Virus record (IMG/VR): IMGVR_UViG_3300034410_000474
Span: 17,575-81,574 of that record
Origin: a virus
Taxonomy: Duplodnaviria; Caudoviricetes
DNA length: 64,000 bases
Strand: one strand, 5' to 3'
This document shows positions 17,567 through 50,059 of this stretch, piece after piece. Within the stretch, counting starts at the first letter, position 1, and the number at the start of each line of letters is the position of its first letter. The notes beneath the pieces are model-generated. The model saw only the letters and a program-made list of their open reading frames with translations. It did not search any database and was not told the origin of the DNA. The position numbers and the translations under genes are program-made.

Positions 17567-18547
17567 ATGTCAAATGAGTTAGACGAAAAGTTCGTTGAGA
17601 AATCTGGTGGCGACGTTGTTCCTGCAGCAGAAGTGCAGGATACCGTATCTCCAGAAGGCGGCGAAATCAAGAAGAAAAAGGCAGATGTCAAAAAATCAGT
17701 AGATCCAAAAGCTGACAAAGTAGACAAAGTCACTCCAGGCCAAGGCGCTGTTGCAGAAGAAGCTGAAGAAGCTGATGCTGAAGCGGTTGTTGAAGAAGTA
17801 GTTGAAATTGAGGAATCAATCCAAGCTATGTTCGAAGGCGTGGACCTCTCAGAAGAATTCAAATCAAAAGTAACATTAGTCTTTGAAGCAGCTGTTCATG
17901 AAGCAGCAACTGCAAAAGCTGAAGTTGTAATTGCAGAGAAAACTGAAGCTCTAGAAGTAGAGATGAAAGAATCAGTAGATACTGCAGTTGAAAAAATCGT
18001 TGAAAATCTTGATTCTTATCTCGACTACGTAGTAGAAGAGTGGATGAAAGAGAACGAGCTTGCTATTGAAACCGGCGTTAAGGTAGAAATGGCAGAGTCA
18101 TTAATGACTGGTCTTAAAGGATTATTCGAAGAGCACAACATCGAAGTCGATGATGAAACTATCGACGTAGTTGCTGGCTTGGAAGAAGAAGTTCAAGAAC
18201 TTAAGACTACTGCTAATGAAAAGATCAGTGAAAACGTTGAACTACATAAGCAGATTGCATCACTTAATGCAGATAGAGTATTTGACGAAATGACCGAAGA
18301 CTTGACTATCACCCAGCGTGAGAGACTTAAAGTTCTTTCTGAGAAACTCGACGTACAAGATATTGCGGAATACAAAACCGATCTTTCAACACTTAAGGAA
18401 TCTTTCTTTGCTAAGAAAGCTACTGTAGTTGAGGAAGTTGAGGAAGAGCAAGAAATCATTACTGAAGAAACAGCGGTTAAGAGACCAGTCTCTGATCACT
18501 CTTCAATTAATGCTCTCGTTGAGTCTCTAAACGCAAGAAACAAATAA
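17567..18547 (+). CDS. gp22: Prohead scaffold gp22
   Basis: LSEEFKSK..VFEAAV, LDSYLDYVVEEW..EN.LAIETG; acidic coiled coil. Confidence 0.93.
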   Translation: MSNELDEKFVEKSGGDVVPAAEVQDTVSPEGGEIKKKKADVKKSVDPKADKVDKVTPGQGAVAEEAEEADAEAVVEEVVEIEESIQAMFEGVDLSEEFKSKVTLVFEAAVHEAATAKAEVVIAEKTEALEVEMKESVDTAVEKIVENLDSYLDYVVEEWMKENELAIETGVKVEMAESLMTGLKGLFEEHNIEVDDETIDVVAGLEEEVQELKTTANEKISENVELHKQIASLNADRVFDEMTEDLTITQRERLKVLSEKLDVQDIAEYKTDLSTLKESFFAKKATVVEEVEEEQEIITEETAVKRPVSDHSSINALVESLNARNK

Positions 18548-18611: not shown

Positions 18612-19955
18612 ATGGCACAGTCAAACTATCAAGCTCTTGTGGAGAAGTGGGGCCCCATTTTGGAGCACGACTCTTTTTCACCAATTGCAGATCAACACAA
18701 GAAATCTGTCACTGCGACAATTCTTGAAAACACAGAAAAGGCTCTCGTAGAATCAGGTGATATCTCTGCTTCTATGACTGGTCTTCTTAGCGAAACTACA
18801 GTAACAGGCGATGGCGGCTTCGGTTCAGCTTCAACTGCTGCTGGTCCAACTGCTGGTTACGATCCAGTATTAATCTCATTAGTACGTCGTGCAATGCCTA
18901 ATCTTATGGCATACGACATTGCTGGTGTACAGCCAATGACAGGTCCAACAGGACTTATCTTTGCAATGCGTTCAACTTACACTAACCAAGCTGGCGGCGA
19001 AGCTTTCTACAACGAAGCTGATACTGACTTCTCTGGTACAGGTGCTCATAGCGCGAAACTAGGCGAAGGTTCAGAAACTACTGGTGTAGGCCTTGACACT
19101 GACGATGCTGAAGCATTGGGAACTCTCCCAATCGTAGGCGGAACCGGTGCTGCTGGTGACCCAGTTGCTCCAACTACTTCATTCGGCGAAATGGCCTTCT
19201 CAATCGAGAAAGTTACGGTTGCTGCGAAGTCAAGAGCTCTGAAAGCTGAATACACTACTGAGCTTGCTCAGGACCTTAAAGCAGTTCACGGCTTAGATGC
19301 TGAAACTGAATTAGCCAACATTCTCCAGTCTGAAATCTTAGTTGAGATCAACAGAGAATTGGTTCGTACAATCTACTCAAATGCTGTTGCTGGTGCAACT
19401 GCTACCGCCGCTCCGGGTACATTCGACTTAGACGTTGATGCAAACGGTCGTTGGTCAGTAGAGAAGTTCAAAGGTTTAATGTTCCAAATCGAGCAAGAAG
19501 CTAACGCTATTGCAAAAGGAACCAGACGTGGTAAAGGTAACATCGTAATTTGTTCTTCAGACGTAGCTTCTGCATTACAAATGGCTGGTGTTCTTGATTA
19601 CACTCCTGCTCTTAACTCTAACAGCTTATCAGTAGATGATACAGGTAATACTTTTGCTGGTGTTCTTAACGGACGTTACAAAGTATATATCGATCCATAT
19701 GCTGGTTCAAACTACTTAGTAGTTGGTTATAAAGGTTCTAGCGCATTCGATGCTGGTATCTTCTATTGCCCATATGTTCCATTACAAATGGTTCGCGCAG
19801 TTGGCGAGAATTCATTCCAACCAAAAATCGGGTTCAAAACTCGTTACGGTATGGTATCGAATCCTTATGCTAAAGGCATTACTCAAGGTTCAGGCGCATT
19901 GGATGCAAATTCAAACGTTTACTACCGTAGAGTGGGTATCGCAAACTTATTCTAA
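18612..19955 (+). CDS. gp23: Major capsid protein gp23
   Basis: DPVLISLVRRAMPNL, GVQPMTGPTGLIFAMR, SRALKAEY, YCPYVPL, GFKTRYG. Confidence 0.98.
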   Translation: MAQSNYQALVEKWGPILEHDSFSPIADQHKKSVTATILENTEKALVESGDISASMTGLLSETTVTGDGGFGSASTAAGPTAGYDPVLISLVRRAMPNLMAYDIAGVQPMTGPTGLIFAMRSTYTNQAGGEAFYNEADTDFSGTGAHSAKLGEGSETTGVGLDTDDAEALGTLPIVGGTGAAGDPVAPTTSFGEMAFSIEKVTVAAKSRALKAEYTTELAQDLKAVHGLDAETELANILQSEILVEINRELVRTIYSNAVAGATATAAPGTFDLDVDANGRWSVEKFKGLMFQIEQEANAIAKGTRRGKGNIVICSSDVASALQMAGVLDYTPALNSNSLSVDDTGNTFAGVLNGRYKVYIDPYAGSNYLVVGYKGSSAFDAGIFYCPYVPLQMVRAVGENSFQPKIGFKTRYGMVSNPYAKGITQGSGALDANSNVYYRRVGIANLF

Positions 19956-21495: not shown

Positions 21496-21918
21496 TTATA
21501 GTTTCCCATCTTCTCTAAGTTGGGCCCTGATTTTTGTTGCTGAGATTTCATGAATCTCTTTTCCAAGATCGTGCTCGGTAAAAGTATAGCCGACACCTCG
21601 ACCATAGCTAATATCCACAATGTTAGGAACGCAAATAATAATATACTCGTGACCATTATAATAACCCTCCGCCGCTAGTCCGGCTTCAATTTGTTCGATT
21701 ACTTTTATTTCACCAAAGGGATTATCAGACTGATCAACGGTACGTCCACCGCCTGCATCTTTATCTGTTATCCCGCCTACGTCTCTGACCATAATTGCAA
21801 CTTGTCCAGTGACTTCTAAGGCCCTTTTAAAAAGAGCTGTATGTCCATCGTGCCAAGGTTGCCAACGCCCTAGCATTTGAGCTGTGGGCTTCTGATAGTC
21901 AAAATATTCTTTCATCAT
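21496..21918 (-). CDS. Small HxGH nucleotidyltransferase (cytidylyltransferase-like), APS-kinase-associated
   Basis: LGRWQPWHDGH, VPNIVDISYGRGVGY, ISATKIR. Confidence 0.8.
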   Translation of the reverse strand: MMKEYFDYQKPTAQMLGRWQPWHDGHTALFKRALEVTGQVAIMVRDVGGITDKDAGGGRTVDQSDNPFGEIKVIEQIEAGLAAEGYYNGHEYIIICVPNIVDISYGRGVGYTFTEHDLGKEIHEISATKIRAQLREDGKL

Positions 21919-22142
21919 GATTCATCTTTCCTCCTTAAACCAATTTTGATGTACTTATACCACAATCTTTCGTGACCATAATACAAGACGAATTTAATGA
22001 TAAGATCAGCAACAAATACAAGTCCGATTGCTTTTGGCGGTAAACCAAAGTACCACGCTATTAAAACTGTTGTTACACTAGCTATTATACGCCAAGTTAT
22101 TGCTTTTGTCAAATGACGAATTGGTCTTACTGATTCAGTCAT
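21915..22142 (-). CDS. DUF2061-type small membrane protein
   Basis: RHL.KAITWRI...K.VLYY.HER.W signature. Confidence 0.8.
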   Translation of the reverse strand: MTESVRPIRHLTKAITWRIIASVTTVLIAWYFGLPPKAIGLVFVADLIIKFVLYYGHERLWYKYIKIGLRRKDES

Positions 22143-22582
22143 TTTTGATCTCGTTTTTCGCTGTGCTTTCTTTGCATGAATACTGATATAACCTGCATCA
22201 AAGTTTGATGAGTATCATCGAACCATTCTGAAACTTTGTAATCACATTGAGTAGGAGGTACGAACATTTTATTTGTATCTTCGTAACGTCCCTCTTCAAT
22301 AGTATCCATCCACACAGTAAAATCTGGATTGAAAGCTAATCTCGCTTCCTCGGTTGGACAAACAAAATCTGTAACTGCAATTGCTCCGGCTTTAACTGCA
22401 CCGTCGCTTAAATGTCTCATACGATTTGCTTGTCTCATACGACCTTCAGGAGTAAAATCCCAGTCGTTATATTCTTCGCGAACTTCGTCTGCATTAATGT
22501 GAACTGCACCTAGCAATTCAGCAAGAGGTTTTGCCAGTGTCGTCTTACCTGAACCTGGCAATCCAAATATCAAGATTTTCAT
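22139..22582 (-). CDS. cysC: Adenylyl-sulfate (APS) kinase-like protein
   Basis: GLPGSGKTTLA P-loop, NADEVR, DWDFTPEGRMRQA.RM, DFVCP; short form. Confidence 0.8.
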   Translation of the reverse strand: MKILIFGLPGSGKTTLAKPLAELLGAVHINADEVREEYNDWDFTPEGRMRQANRMRHLSDGAVKAGAIAVTDFVCPTEEARLAFNPDFTVWMDTIEEGRYEDTNKMFVPPTQCDYKVSEWFDDTHQTLMQVISVFMQRKHSEKRDQK

Positions 22583-22643: not shown

Positions 22644-23603
22644 CTAGGCTGCTTCTGCCATTTCCAAAGCGATGTCTAATGCATCTACTTTTTTCTTGGC
22701 GTTTCCACCAAACCATGCGGCATGCATTCTAGCATCTGCTGTACGGCATAGCTCGTGGTCAGTCATATAAGTTACTGCGTTATATGCATTCCACCAAGAG
22801 CCAGGACGGAAGTGATCACCAGGTTGGTTCTCAACAAACTGCATCGCCTGTTCTGCTGTACGTGATAGAGTCTTATCTTCTCTTGAAGATGTGCCAAACA
22901 CTTTAGCCATAAAGCGTTCCAGTGCTGCTTGGTCTTTGTATTGCTTAGAACCAAGAAACTCTGCAGCTTCTTTGAATTTCTCAACTTTGTTGTGAGATAA
23001 GCCAAGTGCTTGCTTAACGACTTCAGCGTCAAACTTTGAACGGTGGTTGATACGAATAGATGGTTGGTTCTTTTCGTTAAGAGCCACTGCCAAAGTGTTA
23101 TTGCAAACAACACGTTCCATTACGAACTTAACATCGATTGCTTTACCATATTGGTGCGGATTAGAAAAGAGCATGTAACCACGAACTTCATCACCATTGA
23201 ATAGAGAGAAGCCGTCTTTTACGTCAGCCAACGCCCATACAATTTGTCCGTCTTTAAGAGAACCAGCTGTATCCATTACCATATCGCCAGCTTTTACGAA
23301 ATCTGTAAAGAAGTCGAAAGCTTCGGAGTTTTGTACTGGATTCCAACCTGGACCAACTTGTGTAAGGACTTTGCTGTCACTAGAGCGGACTAGAGCTTGC
23401 TGGCCGCTTAGGTGGTTATCACCTTTGTGCCTGAAGATAGTGTCGATTTTCTCGACTTCCCAGTCTAGACCTGCAGCAATTTGCATTTCACGTGGAGTCA
23501 TATCGTCTGATACTGGAGTACCAAGACCGTGCCAAGGGAGACCCTTGCTTTCGCGATAAGCCATTTGAGCTTCGCCGTTAATCATTTCTAATTCATGTGC
23601 CAT
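22644..23603 (-). CDS. DUF932-family (phage/plasmid TIGR03299-like) protein
   Basis: PWHGLG, AGLDWEV, VQNSEAFDFF, TAGSL..G..VW.LA, RVVCNNTL, W.AYNAVT. Confidence 0.85.
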   Translation of the reverse strand: MAHELEMINGEAQMAYRESKGLPWHGLGTPVSDDMTPREMQIAAGLDWEVEKIDTIFRHKGDNHLSGQQALVRSSDSKVLTQVGPGWNPVQNSEAFDFFTDFVKAGDMVMDTAGSLKDGQIVWALADVKDGFSLFNGDEVRGYMLFSNPHQYGKAIDVKFVMERVVCNNTLAVALNEKNQPSIRINHRSKFDAEVVKQALGLSHNKVEKFKEAAEFLGSKQYKDQAALERFMAKVFGTSSREDKTLSRTAEQAMQFVENQPGDHFRPGSWWNAYNAVTYMTDHELCRTADARMHAAWFGGNAKKKVDALDIALEMAEAA

Positions 23604-23639: not shown

Positions 23640-23668
23640 ATTATATATCTTTTAAGATTAAATGTCAA
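23640..23668 (-). promoter_or_regulatory. Early sigma70-type promoter
   Basis: TTGACA-N17-TATAAT. Confidence 0.88.
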
Positions 23669-42946: not shown

Positions 42947-43654
42947 TTACCCTGCCGTGTCGGCCATTTGTGTAAGTTTATTATATGTGTCACGCCAATC
43001 TTTTACGTGATAATTCTTTCCACGTTTGTTTGCTTTTGCCAGTGGATAGTCATTACCGCCTGGCTCCATTTTGTCTCCAAAGAAACGAATATCATCGTCT
43101 TCATTAAAGTCTTCTAAAATTTGTCTTTTGTCGCCGCCAGTTCTACCGATATCTATACCAGTTTCACCACCAACAGTTGCGGTAATATTTTCGAATTCAG
43201 AATTAATTTGATATGCAATACTCTCGCGTTCACGGTTTAATTCATCATACTTAACATATTCAGCTCTTTCATCCATAGTCGCATTACGACCAACTATAGA
43301 AAAGTTCCACATACCTCTTCTTTTTTCGATATGATTACCTGTTCTAAGAGGAAATAAACTTGCTTGCAACCAACCAAGTAATAAATTCTCTAAGTCTTTT
43401 GGTGCAGTAAACGACTTAGTGTTAACCCGTTTACCGCGATGCCATACGTCATTACCTTGACAGTTATAGCAAGTTACTACGTTTTCGCATATCTCTGGAC
43501 CAAGCTGCTCGAGTGTTTTATCGTAGTCACTACCAGTAACTAACCAAACACTATTTTTGCTTATAAAGTCTACAAACCATAATCTAAATTCTTCGTCAAT
43601 TCTACTTCTGCTTGGTGTAAGTGTTCCATCGACGTCGAAAACGTATCTTATCAT
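42947..43654 (-). CDS. HAD-IIB (eukaryote-type) phosphomannomutase-like enzyme
   Basis: FDVDGTLTPSR, LVTGSD, HIEKR.GM.NFSI.GRN, GGETGIDI, FFGDKMEPGGNDYPL. Confidence 0.88.
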   Translation of the reverse strand: MIRYVFDVDGTLTPSRSRIDEEFRLWFVDFISKNSVWLVTGSDYDKTLEQLGPEICENVVTCYNCQGNDVWHRGKRVNTKSFTAPKDLENLLLGWLQASLFPLRTGNHIEKRRGMWNFSIVGRNATMDERAEYVKYDELNRERESIAYQINSEFENITATVGGETGIDIGRTGGDKRQILEDFNEDDDIRFFGDKMEPGGNDYPLAKANKRGKNYHVKDWRDTYNKLTQMADTAG

Positions 43655-44021: not shown

Positions 44022-44304
44022 AATTGATTCCTAACCAGTTTCCTATTTTTGTTTTTAACCAACCAGATTCTTGTTTAAGTACAAGACCATAATCAGTTAC
44101 TTTTAAAATCTCTTCACCAGCAACATTTATTGAAACATCATTATATGTTATATCGTCAATAGCATACGTATTAAGAGTTCCAATTTGCATGTTCATATTA
44201 TATGAGTAAGTAAGGCCGTTTTCGGTTCCTGAATAGTCTAAAGGTAATTCGATCTGCTCAGGATAGAGATCGTAAAATTTAAATTCCATTTGTTTATTAA
44301 ACAT
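44011..44304 (-). CDS. Hypothetical protein
   Basis: Start at 44304 preferred (short overlap with upstream stop). Confidence 0.5.
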   Translation of the reverse strand: MFNKQMEFKFYDLYPEQIELPLDYSGTENGLTYSYNMNMQIGTLNTYAIDDITYNDVSINVAGEEILKVTDYGLVLKQESGWLKTKIGNWLGINYEK

Positions 44305-44707
44305 GTTCGCATACCCTTTGTCTGAGATCGCTTGAACTAAATCTATGATCTCGTTTATTGAAATAGAGATCAATATCGCGTTTGCGGCAAATATCTTTAC
44401 CAGTAAACTCTTTATCTCTATACTCTTCTCCTAATATTCTAACATCAATATCGAGCATTGTCAATATGTCTTCGACATCTTTTTCACAATTATATGGAAT
44501 AATTTCATCAACATAACGAACACCATTAAGTTGTGTATAGCGTTCTACAATTGTTTGAACAGGAGCTTTTTTATCATCACGATCTTGACTTGGATCCATT
44601 TGTAATCCACAGATAAGATAATCACATTGAGATTTTGCTTCTCTTAACATCGATACATGTCCAGCATGTAATAGATCAAAGGTACTAAATGTAATCCCTA
44701 CAATCAT
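44297..44707 (-). CDS. Glycerol-3-phosphate cytidylyltransferase-like (TagD-like)
   Basis: TFSTFDLLHAGH, ERY.QL...YVDEIIPY, GEEY, FSSSDLR. Confidence 0.88.
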   Translation of the reverse strand: MIVGITFSTFDLLHAGHVSMLREAKSQCDYLICGLQMDPSQDRDDKKAPVQTIVERYTQLNGVRYVDEIIPYNCEKDVEDILTMLDIDVRILGEEYRDKEFTGKDICRKRDIDLYFNKRDHRFSSSDLRQRVCEHV

Positions 44708-45438
44708 GATTGAATCCTCTTATTATAATCTATTGCCTCACTAATAATAGACAAATCGCAACTTATTCTTTTTGCAGATTCGACTATGGCCGCAGTATCT
44801 TTTGGAAAGCAATGCCCACCAAAACCACGTTCATCGGTAACTTTACTGTGGCTGTCACCAATGCGCCTATCTTTAGTTATAAAACGAGCAACTTCGTGAT
44901 AGCTAATATCAGACTTTTCGCATAAATCATAAACTTGATTAAAGAAAGCAACTTTAGTAGCTAAGAAACTATTGCGCATATACTTAGCAACAATCAAAGC
45001 TTCAGGAGTTCCAACCTCTACATCTACATTAAGACGTTCAGCTAAAAGTGTACTCCAAAAAGAAATGTTACCACCACCAATATAAACAACGTCTTGATTC
45101 TTAAAATCTTCCAATGCATTTTGAGCACGTAAGAACTCAGGTGAAAATGTAATTGATCTATCAGGAAACATTCTTTGTATTTCAGACCAGCCTTCGAGAG
45201 ATATAGTACTTTTGATTAGAATAGGAGCATCAGGAGACATTTGTATTGCATCATAAACGTTCTCCATATAACATGCTCCGGTTCTACTTTCTGGAGTACT
45301 TACTGCAATAATTACAGCATCTGCATATTGATTAATATCTTTAGAACCTAATGCAGGATCATACACATGATAATCGTCCGAGAATGCTAATGCATGTGCT
45401 CTACCTACGAAACCATATCCAAAAATCTGTACCTTCAC
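44704..45438 (-). CDS. Short UDP-glucose/GDP-mannose dehydrogenase-family protein (probable GTG start)
   Basis: GYGFVG, IKST, SPEFLR, KY..NSFLATKV.FFN, GFGGHCFPKD; lacks usual C-terminal domain. Confidence 0.85.
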   Translation of the reverse strand: MKVQIFGYGFVGRAHALAFSDDYHVYDPALGSKDINQYADAVIIAVSTPESRTGACYMENVYDAIQMSPDAPILIKSTISLEGWSEIQRMFPDRSITFSPEFLRAQNALEDFKNQDVVYIGGGNISFWSTLLAERLNVDVEVGTPEALIVAKYMRNSFLATKVAFFNQVYDLCEKSDISYHEVARFITKDRRIGDSHSKVTDERGFGGHCFPKDTAAIVESAKRISCDLSIISEAIDYNKRIQS

Positions 45439-45758
45439 GTGATAATCCAATCAATATCCATAATATTCTTTGGTTGTTCATCCATAGGAATAAAAAGATC
45501 ATGCTCATAATTCTTTATTACAGCCCACCCATACGATGTTGCGCCATAAGAATCTTTCCAACACTCATAGGTTGAGCCTGAATGACCATCAAAGTAATAC
45601 TTTTCATCGTCTTCAGTTACTTTTACGACACCAGAGTTTAATCTCCAGTCGTCGCCATTAAAGGGATTACCTTTTATCCAAGTACCAAACACTCTATAAT
45701 GAGGATCAGTTCCTTCGATCTTTACAAGCATCCATTTGTCTGGTCTGTATTTACTCAT
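45435..45758 (-). CDS. Conserved phage hypothetical protein
   Basis: PDKWMLVKI, WRLNSG, GHSGSTYEC. Confidence 0.7.
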   Translation of the reverse strand: MSKYRPDKWMLVKIEGTDPHYRVFGTWIKGNPFNGDDWRLNSGVVKVTEDDEKYYFDGHSGSTYECWKDSYGATSYGWAVIKNYEHDLFIPMDEQPKNIMDIDWIIT

Positions 45759-48264: not shown

Positions 48265-48498
48265 TTAATTTAAGTTATTTAACATATTTTTTAGGCGCCA
48301 AAGAAGGGTTTTTGTCTCTACAGTGTCATTCCAACACTCATCTCGTGACGTTATATCAGTTAAAAGTTCTTTTAACATCATATTTTCCTGCCTCAGAGCA
48401 TCATTATCTCTGAGAGCAGATTGTTTATCTTTCTTATGATGGTCTATTTCGAGCTGTAGACCTTCAACCGTTCTTTCGTTTATTTTTACCTTTGCCAT
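48265..48498 (-). CDS. Small coiled-coil protein
   Basis: Heptad-like ORF overlapping upstream gene end. Confidence 0.55.
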   Translation of the reverse strand: MAKVKINERTVEGLQLEIDHHKKDKQSALRDNDALRQENMMLKELLTDITSRDECWNDTVETKTLLWRLKNMLNNLN

Positions 48499-50059
48499 TT
48501 GGCTTCACCACTCCATACTTCTTAAAGAATGCGTAATCACTTGCGTATGCGCGTTTAATAAATTCGATTTGTTCTTCTGAAAAGTCATCAGCAGTAATCT
48601 CTTTATTAGTAACGTTATGAGCTACATCGATATCAAAGAACTCATTAACATCTTCACGTTTTACTACTTCAAATTCATCAAAGTTTTCAGTATCAACAAA
48701 TCTGCATTGTGGATGGAAATGATGTACTTGATGTCCACCAGTAATCTTATTTAAATTACGGAAGAACAAATCAATCTTTTCTTCTTTTGAGAGTAAAGTT
48801 AAATCCTTATCGAAAGAAGAGAAGATGTCTCTACCATAATCATAATAACGTTGTTTTGGAGTTAAGTAAACATTTATTAATGAGATGAAACGATCGATTG
48901 GATCAGTAAAAATCATAATAGGTTTTTTGTTTTCTTTAATCAATGTATTATAGAGTCTTGTTCCACGCATTACTTGAATACGCTTTGGATAACTTTCTTT
49001 AATAGTTACTGAACAAGATCGTGGGACTTCAAACCAAAGCTTTTCGTGATTGTTTTCAAGATCATACATTAACGGCCATTCTAACTTTTGGCACCAATAA
49101 CAATTACAATCGTTAAATGCATATGTTGAATTAATATCTACTTCAGGTAATAAGAAATCTTTTACAAACGGTGTATCAAAAATAAGATCAGGTAATAGGC
49201 TATGCGGATAGCGTTTAAGTATATGGTCAGTATTACTATCAGGAGCAATATTACCTTCAACAGGTTCTGTAGTATCTACGAATTGTTTATAATCTGCATA
49301 TCCACCTTCACTATGCCATTTAAAGCTATCGAATGCATGAGCAAACGAATCAGCTTTTGTTTGGCGTTGTTGTGACGATCCCATCCATGCAAAGTGCCAA
49401 CCCATATCTTCTTGAATAATACCTTGATTTGTTGGAAACCGAATTGGAATGCTAATGTTACCACATCGAATATTACTTAGTTTGCAATGTAACAATTGTT
49501 CTTTTGTTGCAAAGAACATAGCACGTTTCCATATAACCGGTACATCATTTCTATGGTGGATACGTAAATCAGCACGACCTTGTAGATATACTAATGGAAT
49601 TTTAATTATAATGTTTGGATGATTGTGGCATTGTTGTGCTACCCATTTAATATGCTTTGGATCGATAATCTCATCTGCATCTCCATAAATGAATACGTCA
49701 CGCTTATCAAAATCACGTAAGGCATTCATTACAGCATCTTTTTGCAAACGTTCTCTTACTCTAGCATATAGAGATTCTTTGTTATTAGCATTTACACCTG
49801 CGTTTCTTCGATCAATTTCGAGTATTTCGAGATCTTCTGTTTCAGGAATATCATGCTCTACATAGATAATCTTTTCAATCGGTAGTCCAAGTTTACGAGC
49901 AACTTCAGGAAATTTGCGATCTACATCTTTACCAGCATGTGTCTTATTTGACTCAACGATAATAAACTTATCTACATGTTCTTTTAATAAGTTAACACGT
50001 AAATAGAGTAGCTCTTCTCCATAGGGAGCAAACCAAGGAAAACAATCTACAATCTTCAT
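48464..50059 (-). CDS. GT17 (GnT-III-like) glycosyltransferase fused to a sulfotransferase-family-2 domain
   Basis: N-terminal VDCF..ELL.LR..L..VDKFIIVES, DADEI, GWHFAWMG; C-terminal VPRSCSVTIK, FTDPIDRFIS, HFHPQ, Y.SDY.FF. Confidence 0.78.
   Translation of the reverse strand: MKIVDCFPWFAPYGEELLYLRVNLLKEHVDKFIIVESNKTHAGKDVDRKFPEVARKLGLPIEKIIYVEHDIPETEDLEILEIDRRNAGVNANNKESLYARVRERLQKDAVMNALRDFDKRDVFIYGDADEIIDPKHIKWVAQQCHNHPNIIIKIPLVYLQGRADLRIHHRNDVPVIWKRAMFFATKEQLLHCKLSNIRCGNISIPIRFPTNQGIIQEDMGWHFAWMGSSQQRQTKADSFAHAFDSFKWHSEGGYADYKQFVDTTEPVEGNIAPDSNTDHILKRYPHSLLPDLIFDTPFVKDFLLPEVDINSTYAFNDCNCYWCQKLEWPLMYDLENNHEKLWFEVPRSCSVTIKESYPKRIQVMRGTRLYNTLIKENKKPIMIFTDPIDRFISLINVYLTPKQRYYDYGRDIFSSFDKDLTLLSKEEKIDLFFRNLNKITGGHQVHHFHPQCRFVDTENFDEFEVVKREDVNEFFDIDVAHNVTNKEITADDFSEEQIEFIKRAYASDYAFFKKYGVVKPNGKGKNKRKNG

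Follow-up and report, generated by a model that had tools for sequence, protein, structure and literature searches.

A candidate early sulfate-to-PAPS module of three coupled genes in an uncultured T4-like marine phage

The window analysed in this study is a stretch of 64,000 nucleotides (positions 17,575 to 81,574) from the 81.6-kb IMG/VR viral record IMGVR_UViG_3300034410_000474, the completeness of which is estimated at 38%. The source virus is an uncultured marine T4-like phage, and the window holds a trio of genes coding for an adenosine 5'-phosphosulfate (APS) kinase-type P-loop kinase, a DUF2061 membrane protein and a small HxGH nucleotidyltransferase (NT) (Table 1). On gene context, the trio is best read as an early phage module which probably leads from sulfate to 3'-phosphoadenosine 5'-phosphosulfate (PAPS), with the NT acting as ATP sulfurylase. 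The NT would transfer AMP from ATP to sulfate to form APS, and the trimmed kinase would then phosphorylate the 3'-OH of APS to give PAPS.

The enzymes known to us as activators of sulfate are of two types only, Sat and CysDN. A broader proposal, which we regard as evenly balanced, is that the NT family (110-140 residues) forms a third, independent class of ATP sulfurylase recruited from nicotinamide mononucleotide adenylyltransferases (NMNATs), making with the kinase a two-part or fused miniature PAPS synthase; DUF2061 would be a membrane component of sulfate activation that has so far escaped notice. The same proposal holds the family to be very abundant in marine and freshwater phages and to activate sulfate in some Alphaproteobacteria with small genomes, for which neither Sat nor CysD was found.

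Coupling of the kinase and the nucleotidyltransferase in phages and bacteria

The kinase and the NT are fused or tightly coupled across phages and bacteria, and hence the NT is taken as the partner of the kinase in a consecutive step. In the 80 closest IMG/VR loci, on which the viral neighbourhood counts are based, the kinase gene adjoins the NT gene in 72 and DUF2061 lies between them in 24, the two enzyme genes overlapping or abutting elsewhere; the enzyme pair is therefore considered as the core and DUF2061 as accessory. The adjacency of the three genes is not due to chance. Both enzymes form one polypeptide in phrog_10255 of PHROGs (230 positions), and this fusion is present in 12 cultured-phage records; phages of Xylella, Xanthomonas, Stenotrophomonas and Clavibacter carry it. 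The NT family comprises 966 clusters at 50% identity and >8000 at 90%, its clusters in the ESM Atlas being 100% viral, and many of its members are proteins of 250-290 amino acids whose N-terminal part is a kinase from this same clade. The kinase family likewise exceeds 8000 clusters at 90% identity.

Possible consumers of PAPS have been found in some of the phages with the pair. A complete relative of 194.6 kb has matches to Sulfotransfer_2 (33.7 bits) and Sulfotransfer_3 (58.4 bits) plus a weaker third one, a complete relative of 342.6 kb has a sub-threshold sulfotransferase match, and Stenotrophomonas phage DLP_6, which carries the fusion, has an annotated sulfotransferase matching Sulfotransfer_2 (PF03567) at 36.8 bits. 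PF03567 matched none of 14 control genomes. Neither CysH (PAPS_reduct) nor CysQ was found in the phage records searched.

The phage-type NT is also encoded in bacteria, with matches of 185-205 bits in 10 of 401 sampled Alphaproteobacteria. The cellular context rests on nine of these ten genomes (G729 was left out, and nothing rests on G373), and in all nine the NT is fused to, or stands next to, a phage-clade kinase; three carriers have genomes of just 0.8-1.3 Mb. On an 88.6-kb contig (L224:7992-11542) the genes for sulfite reductase (cysI), PAPS reductase (cysH), DUF2061, kinase and NT follow one another in this order, flanked by RNase E/G and a class-A penicillin-binding protein. In a second locus (L223) a PAPS_reduct-family match is followed by DUF2061, kinase and NT, and on a 2.06-Mb contig (L225:7653-9433) a Sulfotransfer_3 gene (68 bits) begins 12 nt behind a kinase-NT fusion. 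No other candidate for the first step was found within 8 kb on either side of the pair in these three loci, and sulfate adenylylation is the only step of the three operons which lacks another candidate. Neither Sat nor CysD was found in six of the nine genomes, a weak negative as the completeness of the genomes is unknown. An initial annotation of the window had suggested that the NT supplies APS, and this part of it has gained from the alphaproteobacterial gene context, which would put the NT in the ATP-sulfurylase slot; the argument from Sat homology on which it was built has failed, as described below.

It is unlikely, on the other hand, that the kinase alone takes part in sulfate activation, acting on host APS, while the NT has some other linked role (for example nucleotide recycling, regulation or the adenylylation of another target). 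Bacteroidota and many other hosts do have CysDN or Sat as a possible source of APS, three of the nine pair-carrying cellular genomes also have Sat or CysD, and the kinase can occur apart from the NT, as in Ralstonia phage RsoM2USA, where no NT was detectable, and in phiRSL1, where the fusion partner of the kinase is a small domain of another kind. However, the fusion and tight coupling of the enzymes point to consecutive steps, the HxGH and ISxTxxR catalytic residues are invariant in the NT family, and the first step would be left without a candidate in the three operons and in the six genomes mentioned above.

Two side observations concern these loci. In a 1.3-Mb alphaproteobacterium (L222:2883-12052), kinase and NT lie among genes for a Rieske ring-hydroxylating oxygenase and for HalD-like, 3-hydroxyisobutyrate-dehydrogenase-like, class II aldolase and FrhB-like proteins, and this neighbourhood shows no obvious sulfate-assimilation genes. 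Further, the domain fused to the kinase in phiRSL1 (ORF238 C-terminus, L173:3409-3681) is a beta-rich domain of ~75 amino acids with the pattern Y.IR[FY]N...WR, and it is also fused to an NT in a metagenomic protein (P0154, residues 1-75; 36% identity, E 9e-9). It recurs as a third partner of the module and is not present in the window.

Family, fold and active-site motifs of the three proteins

The kinase belongs to the APS-kinase lineage as a trimmed member, and its action on APS is predicted. It matches Pfam APS_kinase (PF01583) with 34.2 bits (cut-off 21.1) over model positions 5-90 only, that is the N-terminal 60%, and TIGR00455 with 27.3 bits (cut-off 138.7). When the profile of the phage clade was compared with the PDB, all APS kinases were matched at E 1e-18 to 1e-12, and shikimate kinase, the next family, at 7e-5. 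The AlphaFold2 (AF2) model of the kinase has a mean predicted local distance difference test score (pLDDT) of 95 and gave Z scores of 16.3-18.3 to 23 APS-kinase entries in VIA, with 139-144 of 147 residues aligned; the first other kinase in this ranking, behind the 23 entries, is gluconokinase. The APS-kinase-like character stated in the initial annotation is borne out, and the Joint Genome Institute (JGI) name of the family is also adenylylsulfate kinase. The P-loop GLPGSGKTT is intact, and in the alignment with flavobacterial CysC the APS-site residues D32, R35, F43 and R48 correspond to the Asp of DGDN, the Arg, the Phe of GFS and the Arg, all four being invariant or nearly so in the phage clade; the (S/C)P motif is also kept. 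The lid segment KGLYKKARAGEIKxFTGIxxPYE of APS kinases is not preserved.

On the evidence of sequence and model, the NT is read as a cut-down NadM-type, NMNAT-like adenylyltransferase with a remodelled co-substrate site. Its best NCBIfam match is NMNAT, and its bit scores lie under the cut-offs of TIGR01527 for archaeal NMNAT (16.6 against 181.2), NF002243 (21.5 against 127) and CTP_transf_like (16.9 against 21). The family profile matched NadM/archaeal NMNAT in the PDB (1f9a, 1ej2, 2qjt, 2qjo) at E 2e-11. In hhalign comparisons with profiles assembled from genome matches (16 archaeal NMNATs; 18 catalytic domains of Sat), archaeal NMNAT was aligned over 108 columns with a probability of 98% and E 7e-15. 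The AF2 model (pLDDT 92) gave a Z score of 10.4 in VIA to NMNAT and to phosphopantetheine adenylyltransferase (PPAT) alike over ~113 residues (114 for NadM), with identities of 24% and 13-15%, respectively.

The motif comparison has indicated which parts of this fold are kept. The NT contains GRWQPWHDGH and ISATKIR, and the family retains GRxQPxHxGH, NPF and ISxTxxR, so that GRFQPxHxGH, NPF and S.T..R are shared with NadM. In contrast to NadM, the NT has lost GSAQxSHT, AGER, DxxR...W and NNP, with ~27 residues deleted in a gap spanning the DxxR...W/NNP segment, and it has an invariant family motif of its own, YGR(D)VGY, which reads YGRGVGY in the window copy. The NMNAT-specific motifs (GSAQxSHT, NPFTAGER, of which only NPF remains, DxxR...W and NNP) are those which we take to be NMN-binding. 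The NT derives from a NadM-type NMNAT whose presumed NMN-site motifs have been lost while the ATP motifs were kept. An APS-kinase homologue always accompanies it, NAD genes never do.

The relationship to Sat proposed in the initial annotation has been ruled out by the Pfam, PDB profile, Foldseek/VIA and hhalign comparisons. The NT reaches 17.5 bits against the Pfam ATP-sulfurylase family PF01747 (cut-off 24.3; residues 20-54 only) and 11 bits against TIGR00339 for Sat (cut-off 323), no Sat is found among the PDB profile matches of the family at E<=1, and hhalign gave a probability of 1.8% over 22 columns around HxxH only. The structure comparison with Sat which the initial annotation had asked for placed Sat outside the top 50 matches of the model in VIA, and the template modelling (TM) score in Foldseek was 0.35-0.40 over ~88 residues. 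The sulfate/ATP motif FQTRNPxHRAH of Sat is not kept, as the NT has both His residues and no QTRN, and GRWQPWHDGH follows the NadM pattern.

The nearness to NMNATs raises the explanation that the trio serves NadR-like salvage of NAD+, in which the kinase would act on nicotinamide riboside, the NT would convert NMN to NAD+ and DUF2061 would serve in uptake, which may offset NAD-depleting defences. We consider it very unlikely. Besides the profile matches above, the 23-24% identity in structural alignments, the kinase-plus-NT logic as in NadR and an NT segment VPNI..I.Y loosely resembling the P.eD...R...W of NMNATs are in keeping with it. However, the kinase is of APS-kinase and not of NadR ribosylnicotinamide kinase (RNK) lineage (AAA_28, the NadR-RNK type, scored 23 bits, under the cut-off), the motifs specific to NMNATs have disappeared, cys genes and sulfotransferases, but no NAD genes, make up the gene neighbourhood, and the window record, the two complete relatives (G008 and G013) and phage Salvo yielded no gene of the NAPRTase family. 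DLP_6 carries, apart from the fusion, NadV beside a CTP_transf_like+NUDIX gene of the NadM-Nudix type, and since this phage thus already has an NMNAT, a second such role for the kinase-NT fusion is unlikely.

Three odd metagenomic proteins were met in the NT family: P0128, P0162 and P0203, among which one has an internal tandem NT duplication and two have the NT joined to fragments of chorismate synthase or 3-dehydroquinate synthase. They are probably assembly chimeras.

The middle gene matches PF09834 (DUF2061) with 46.1 bits (cut-off 23.1) over model positions 2-51 of 52, and its closest cellular relatives are mostly from Bacteroidota. The statement of the initial annotation that DUF2061 genes often neighbour cys genes was examined in 66 cellular DUF2061 loci with CysQ, CysC, CysD and CysN probes taken from one locus, and it has held: CysC lies within 3 kb of DUF2061 in 30 of the 66 loci, mostly within 250 bp, CysD in 31 and CysQ in 24. 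The usual cellular order is cysQ-DUF2061-cysC-cysD-cysN, and the linkage is also seen in Clostridia, Aminicenantes and one archaeal metagenome-assembled genome (MAG). In Gaetbulibacter aestuarii (L022:2791-9581), genes for UDP-glucose dehydrogenase, CysQ, a double DUF2061, CysC, CysD, CysN and GDP-mannose dehydratase are found in this order, which suggests a PAPS cassette for sulfated-polysaccharide synthesis rather than for cysteine assimilation. A search for longer DUF2061 fusions returned only two, which were uninformative. None of the papers found to mention DUF2061 deals with sulfur, as judged from titles and abstracts.

Gene layout, expression signals and sugar genes of the window

The features of the trio and its surroundings are collected in Table 1. 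The three reading frames and their ATGA-type overlaps described in the initial annotation were recovered as such, both junctions being ATGA stop/start overlaps (tcat on the plus strand), and the kinase gene has a ribosome-binding site AAGGAG, 7 nt ahead of its ATG. The two perfect sigma-70-type promoters are 1.5 kb apart, and the late-promoter motif TATAAATA of T4 type was not found between 18571 and 31475; the trio therefore looks early-expressed, as judged from these signals. The NT may also be transcribed alone, because the second promoter sits ahead of its start. The relatives keep the gene order DUF932-kinase-DUF2061-NT-dsbA...gp23, and at the DNA level the trio found no match among 50,697 phage records. 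As a side observation, the DUF932 gene is a conserved upstream neighbour of the trio in these relatives.

Table 1. Positions in the window of the trio, its expression signals and other features discussed in the text
Feature	Position	Strand	Basis
Trimmed APS-kinase-type P-loop kinase, 147 aa	22139..22582	-	Pfam APS_kinase, PDB profile, AF2 model
DUF2061 two-helix membrane protein, 75 aa	21915..22142	-	PF09834
HxGH/ISxTxxR nucleotidyltransferase (NT), 140 aa, candidate minimal ATP sulfurylase	21496..21918	-	Profile, AF2, hhalign, context
Perfect sigma-70-type promoter TTGACA-17-TATAAT	23640..23668	-	Upstream of DUF932 gene and trio, 12/12 match
Second perfect sigma-70-type promoter	22084..22112	-	Within DUF2061 reading frame, ~165 nt upstream of NT start, 12/12 match
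DUF932 protein	22644..23603	-	E 1e-38; shares promoter with trio
GT17 glycosyltransferase with divergent sulfotransferase-like C-terminal half, possible PAPS consumer	48464..50059	-	Pfam, motifs

The T4-like genes of the window include gp23 (18612-19955) and those for prohead, RNase H, ligase, ribonucleotide reductase, thymidylate synthase and PhoH proteins. Its sugar genes code for a phosphomannomutase, a 136-aa cytidylyltransferase, a UDP-glucose/GDP-mannose dehydrogenase-like protein, an epimerase/dehydratase and glycosyltransferases of families GT1 and GT17. The cytidylyltransferase is a second small HxGH enzyme (44297-44707, minus strand), which is canonical and matches CTP_transf_like over its full length at E 1e-13. 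Its gene overlaps the truncated-looking dehydrogenase-like gene (44704-45450) and lies near the phosphomannomutase gene of eukaryote type (42947-43654); these genes are a sugar-nucleotide cassette separate from the trio.

The initial annotation had named the gene at 48464 as the sulfotransferase which would use the PAPS, but the link is weaker than was proposed there. In the product of this gene, Pfam finds only Glyco_transf_17 (residues 16-151), and the C-terminal half has neither a Pfam nor a PDB sequence match. The motifs VPRSCSVT, TDPIDRFIS and HFHPQ of this half resemble sulfotransferase-2 at the motif level. The protein was not found in 12 related viral records, and hence the trio is not tied to this gene, which moreover lies behind a late-type TATAAATA whereas the trio lies behind early-type promoters.

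Copies of both were seen outside the viral records. Two contigs (L010 and L078) of a 'Saprospiraceae' MAG bear the trio (73-77% identity) and also the GT17-sulfotransferase-like gene, the latter with 61% identity and one in-frame TGA. In all likelihood they are phage DNA, either binned together with the bacterium or from a phage that infects it, and are therefore a possible hint at a Bacteroidota host.

Proposed route, comparison with known systems and implications

In the proposed sulfate-to-PAPS route, the kinase step would pull the unfavourable adenylylation of sulfate forward, as in PAPS synthases, and this pull would explain the frequent fusion or overlap of kinase and NT. DUF2061 is envisaged as an accessory membrane partner of the APS kinase, providing a route of sulfate entry or a membrane tether. 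The PAPS formed may feed phage or host sulfotransferases and/or the PAPS reductase of the host; glycan sulfation is the probable use because the phage carries sugar genes.

Several points weigh against this reading. The support for the function of the NT is contextual, and its nearest relatives by sequence and fold are NMNAT and PPAT, not Sat; a match of the family consensus YGRDVGY to VGRDHAGVG, the GRDHAG loop of Sat, comes only from a greedy hhalign alignment that is not statistically supported, and it is taken as no more than a lead. The adenylylation of sulfate is very unfavourable, and neither a pyrophosphatase nor a GTPase accompanies the enzymes in the module. Eighteen lid residues of the kinase are missing in comparison to Gaetbulibacter CysC and the solved APS kinases, and the deleted lid includes the Phe of FTG, the second adenine-stacking Phe. 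Among the nine pair-carrying alphaproteobacterial genomes Sat is present in one and CysD in two, and the failure to find them in the others is weak because the genomes are incomplete. Further, the sulfotransferase-like domain of the window itself is too divergent for Pfam, and Salvo-type phages gave no match to CysH or to the sulfotransferase families that were tried.

PAPS synthases and Sat-CysC proteins (human PAPSS1/2, 1x6v; Aquifex, 2gks) resemble the module in that they couple, or fuse, a domain of APS-kinase type with an adenylyltransferase of the HxxH superfamily. The kinase is N-terminal in the fused phage and bacterial forms, as in metazoan PAPSS, and the kinase fold and APS-site residues are common to both. 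On the other hand, the transferase of the module has 110-140 amino acids, in comparison to ~390, without a PUA-like domain, and its homology to PF01747 does not extend past the superfamily motif; the kinase is shorter by 18 lid residues, and a DUF2061 gene may stand between the two. In the CysDN-CysC-CysQ cassettes of Bacteroidota, DUF2061 likewise lies beside an APS kinase in a sulfated-glycan or assimilatory context, whereas sulfate is activated there by the GTPase-coupled CysDN, and the NT was found neither in 301 sampled Bacteroidota genomes nor in the 66 cellular DUF2061 loci.

Campylobacter jejuni offers a parallel in the cytidine diphosphoramidate kinase Cj1415, which is homologous to APS kinase, and in its cytidylyltransferase Cj1416, which is of the HxGH type. 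The Cj1415-Cj1418 pathway makes CDP-phosphoramidate 3'-phosphate for capsule decoration (PMC11800397), and it resembles the module in that a nucleotidyltransferase is followed by a 3'-kinase to give a PAPS-like donor for glycan decoration. By analogy, the NT of the window might join a nucleoside monophosphate to a small anionic molecule, phosphorylated or otherwise, with the kinase adding the 3'-phosphate, so that a different PAPS-like donor would be formed. The remodelled kinase lid, the co-substrate pocket of the NT, which is unlike that of every characterised relative, and the richness of the window in sugar-nucleotide and glycosyltransferase genes are in agreement with such a route, which is nevertheless improbable. 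The donor of C. jejuni carries phosphoramidate, whereas that of the module would carry sulfate, and the C. jejuni system depends on a hydrolase and a glutamine kinase; of these, the glutamine kinase was looked for, and seven phage records contained no PPDK_N-type homologue. Moreover, DUF2061 is linked specifically to cysC, cysDN and cysQ, and the cellular operons with PAPS reductase, sulfite reductase and PAPS-type sulfotransferases speak for sulfate chemistry.

Metagenomic surveys report viral cysC as an auxiliary metabolic gene, and phage cysC genes are reported to be widespread and transcribed (PMC10914622), in line with the initial annotation, which had called cysC-like genes of phages known; the kinase of the module is of a family named adenylylsulfate kinase. 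The reports on viral cysC which were searched treat it as a lone step, with no mention of a coupled small NT or of DUF2061. In the literature searched, no paper was found that describes the small transferase coupled to the kinase, a part of DUF2061 in the activation of sulfate, or a third type of ATP sulfurylase.

If the sulfate-to-PAPS reading is true, this study would bear first on annotation, as genomes and viral cysC genes which have been scored as without the first step would need revised scoring, and DUF2061 would receive its first functional context. A very small PAPS-generating pair would become available for biotechnology. The finding would also affect the view of which bacteria of the plankton are truly able to use sulfate, and it would mean that phages could make the universal sulfate donor themselves, to sulfate glycans or to boost the sulfur assimilation of the host.

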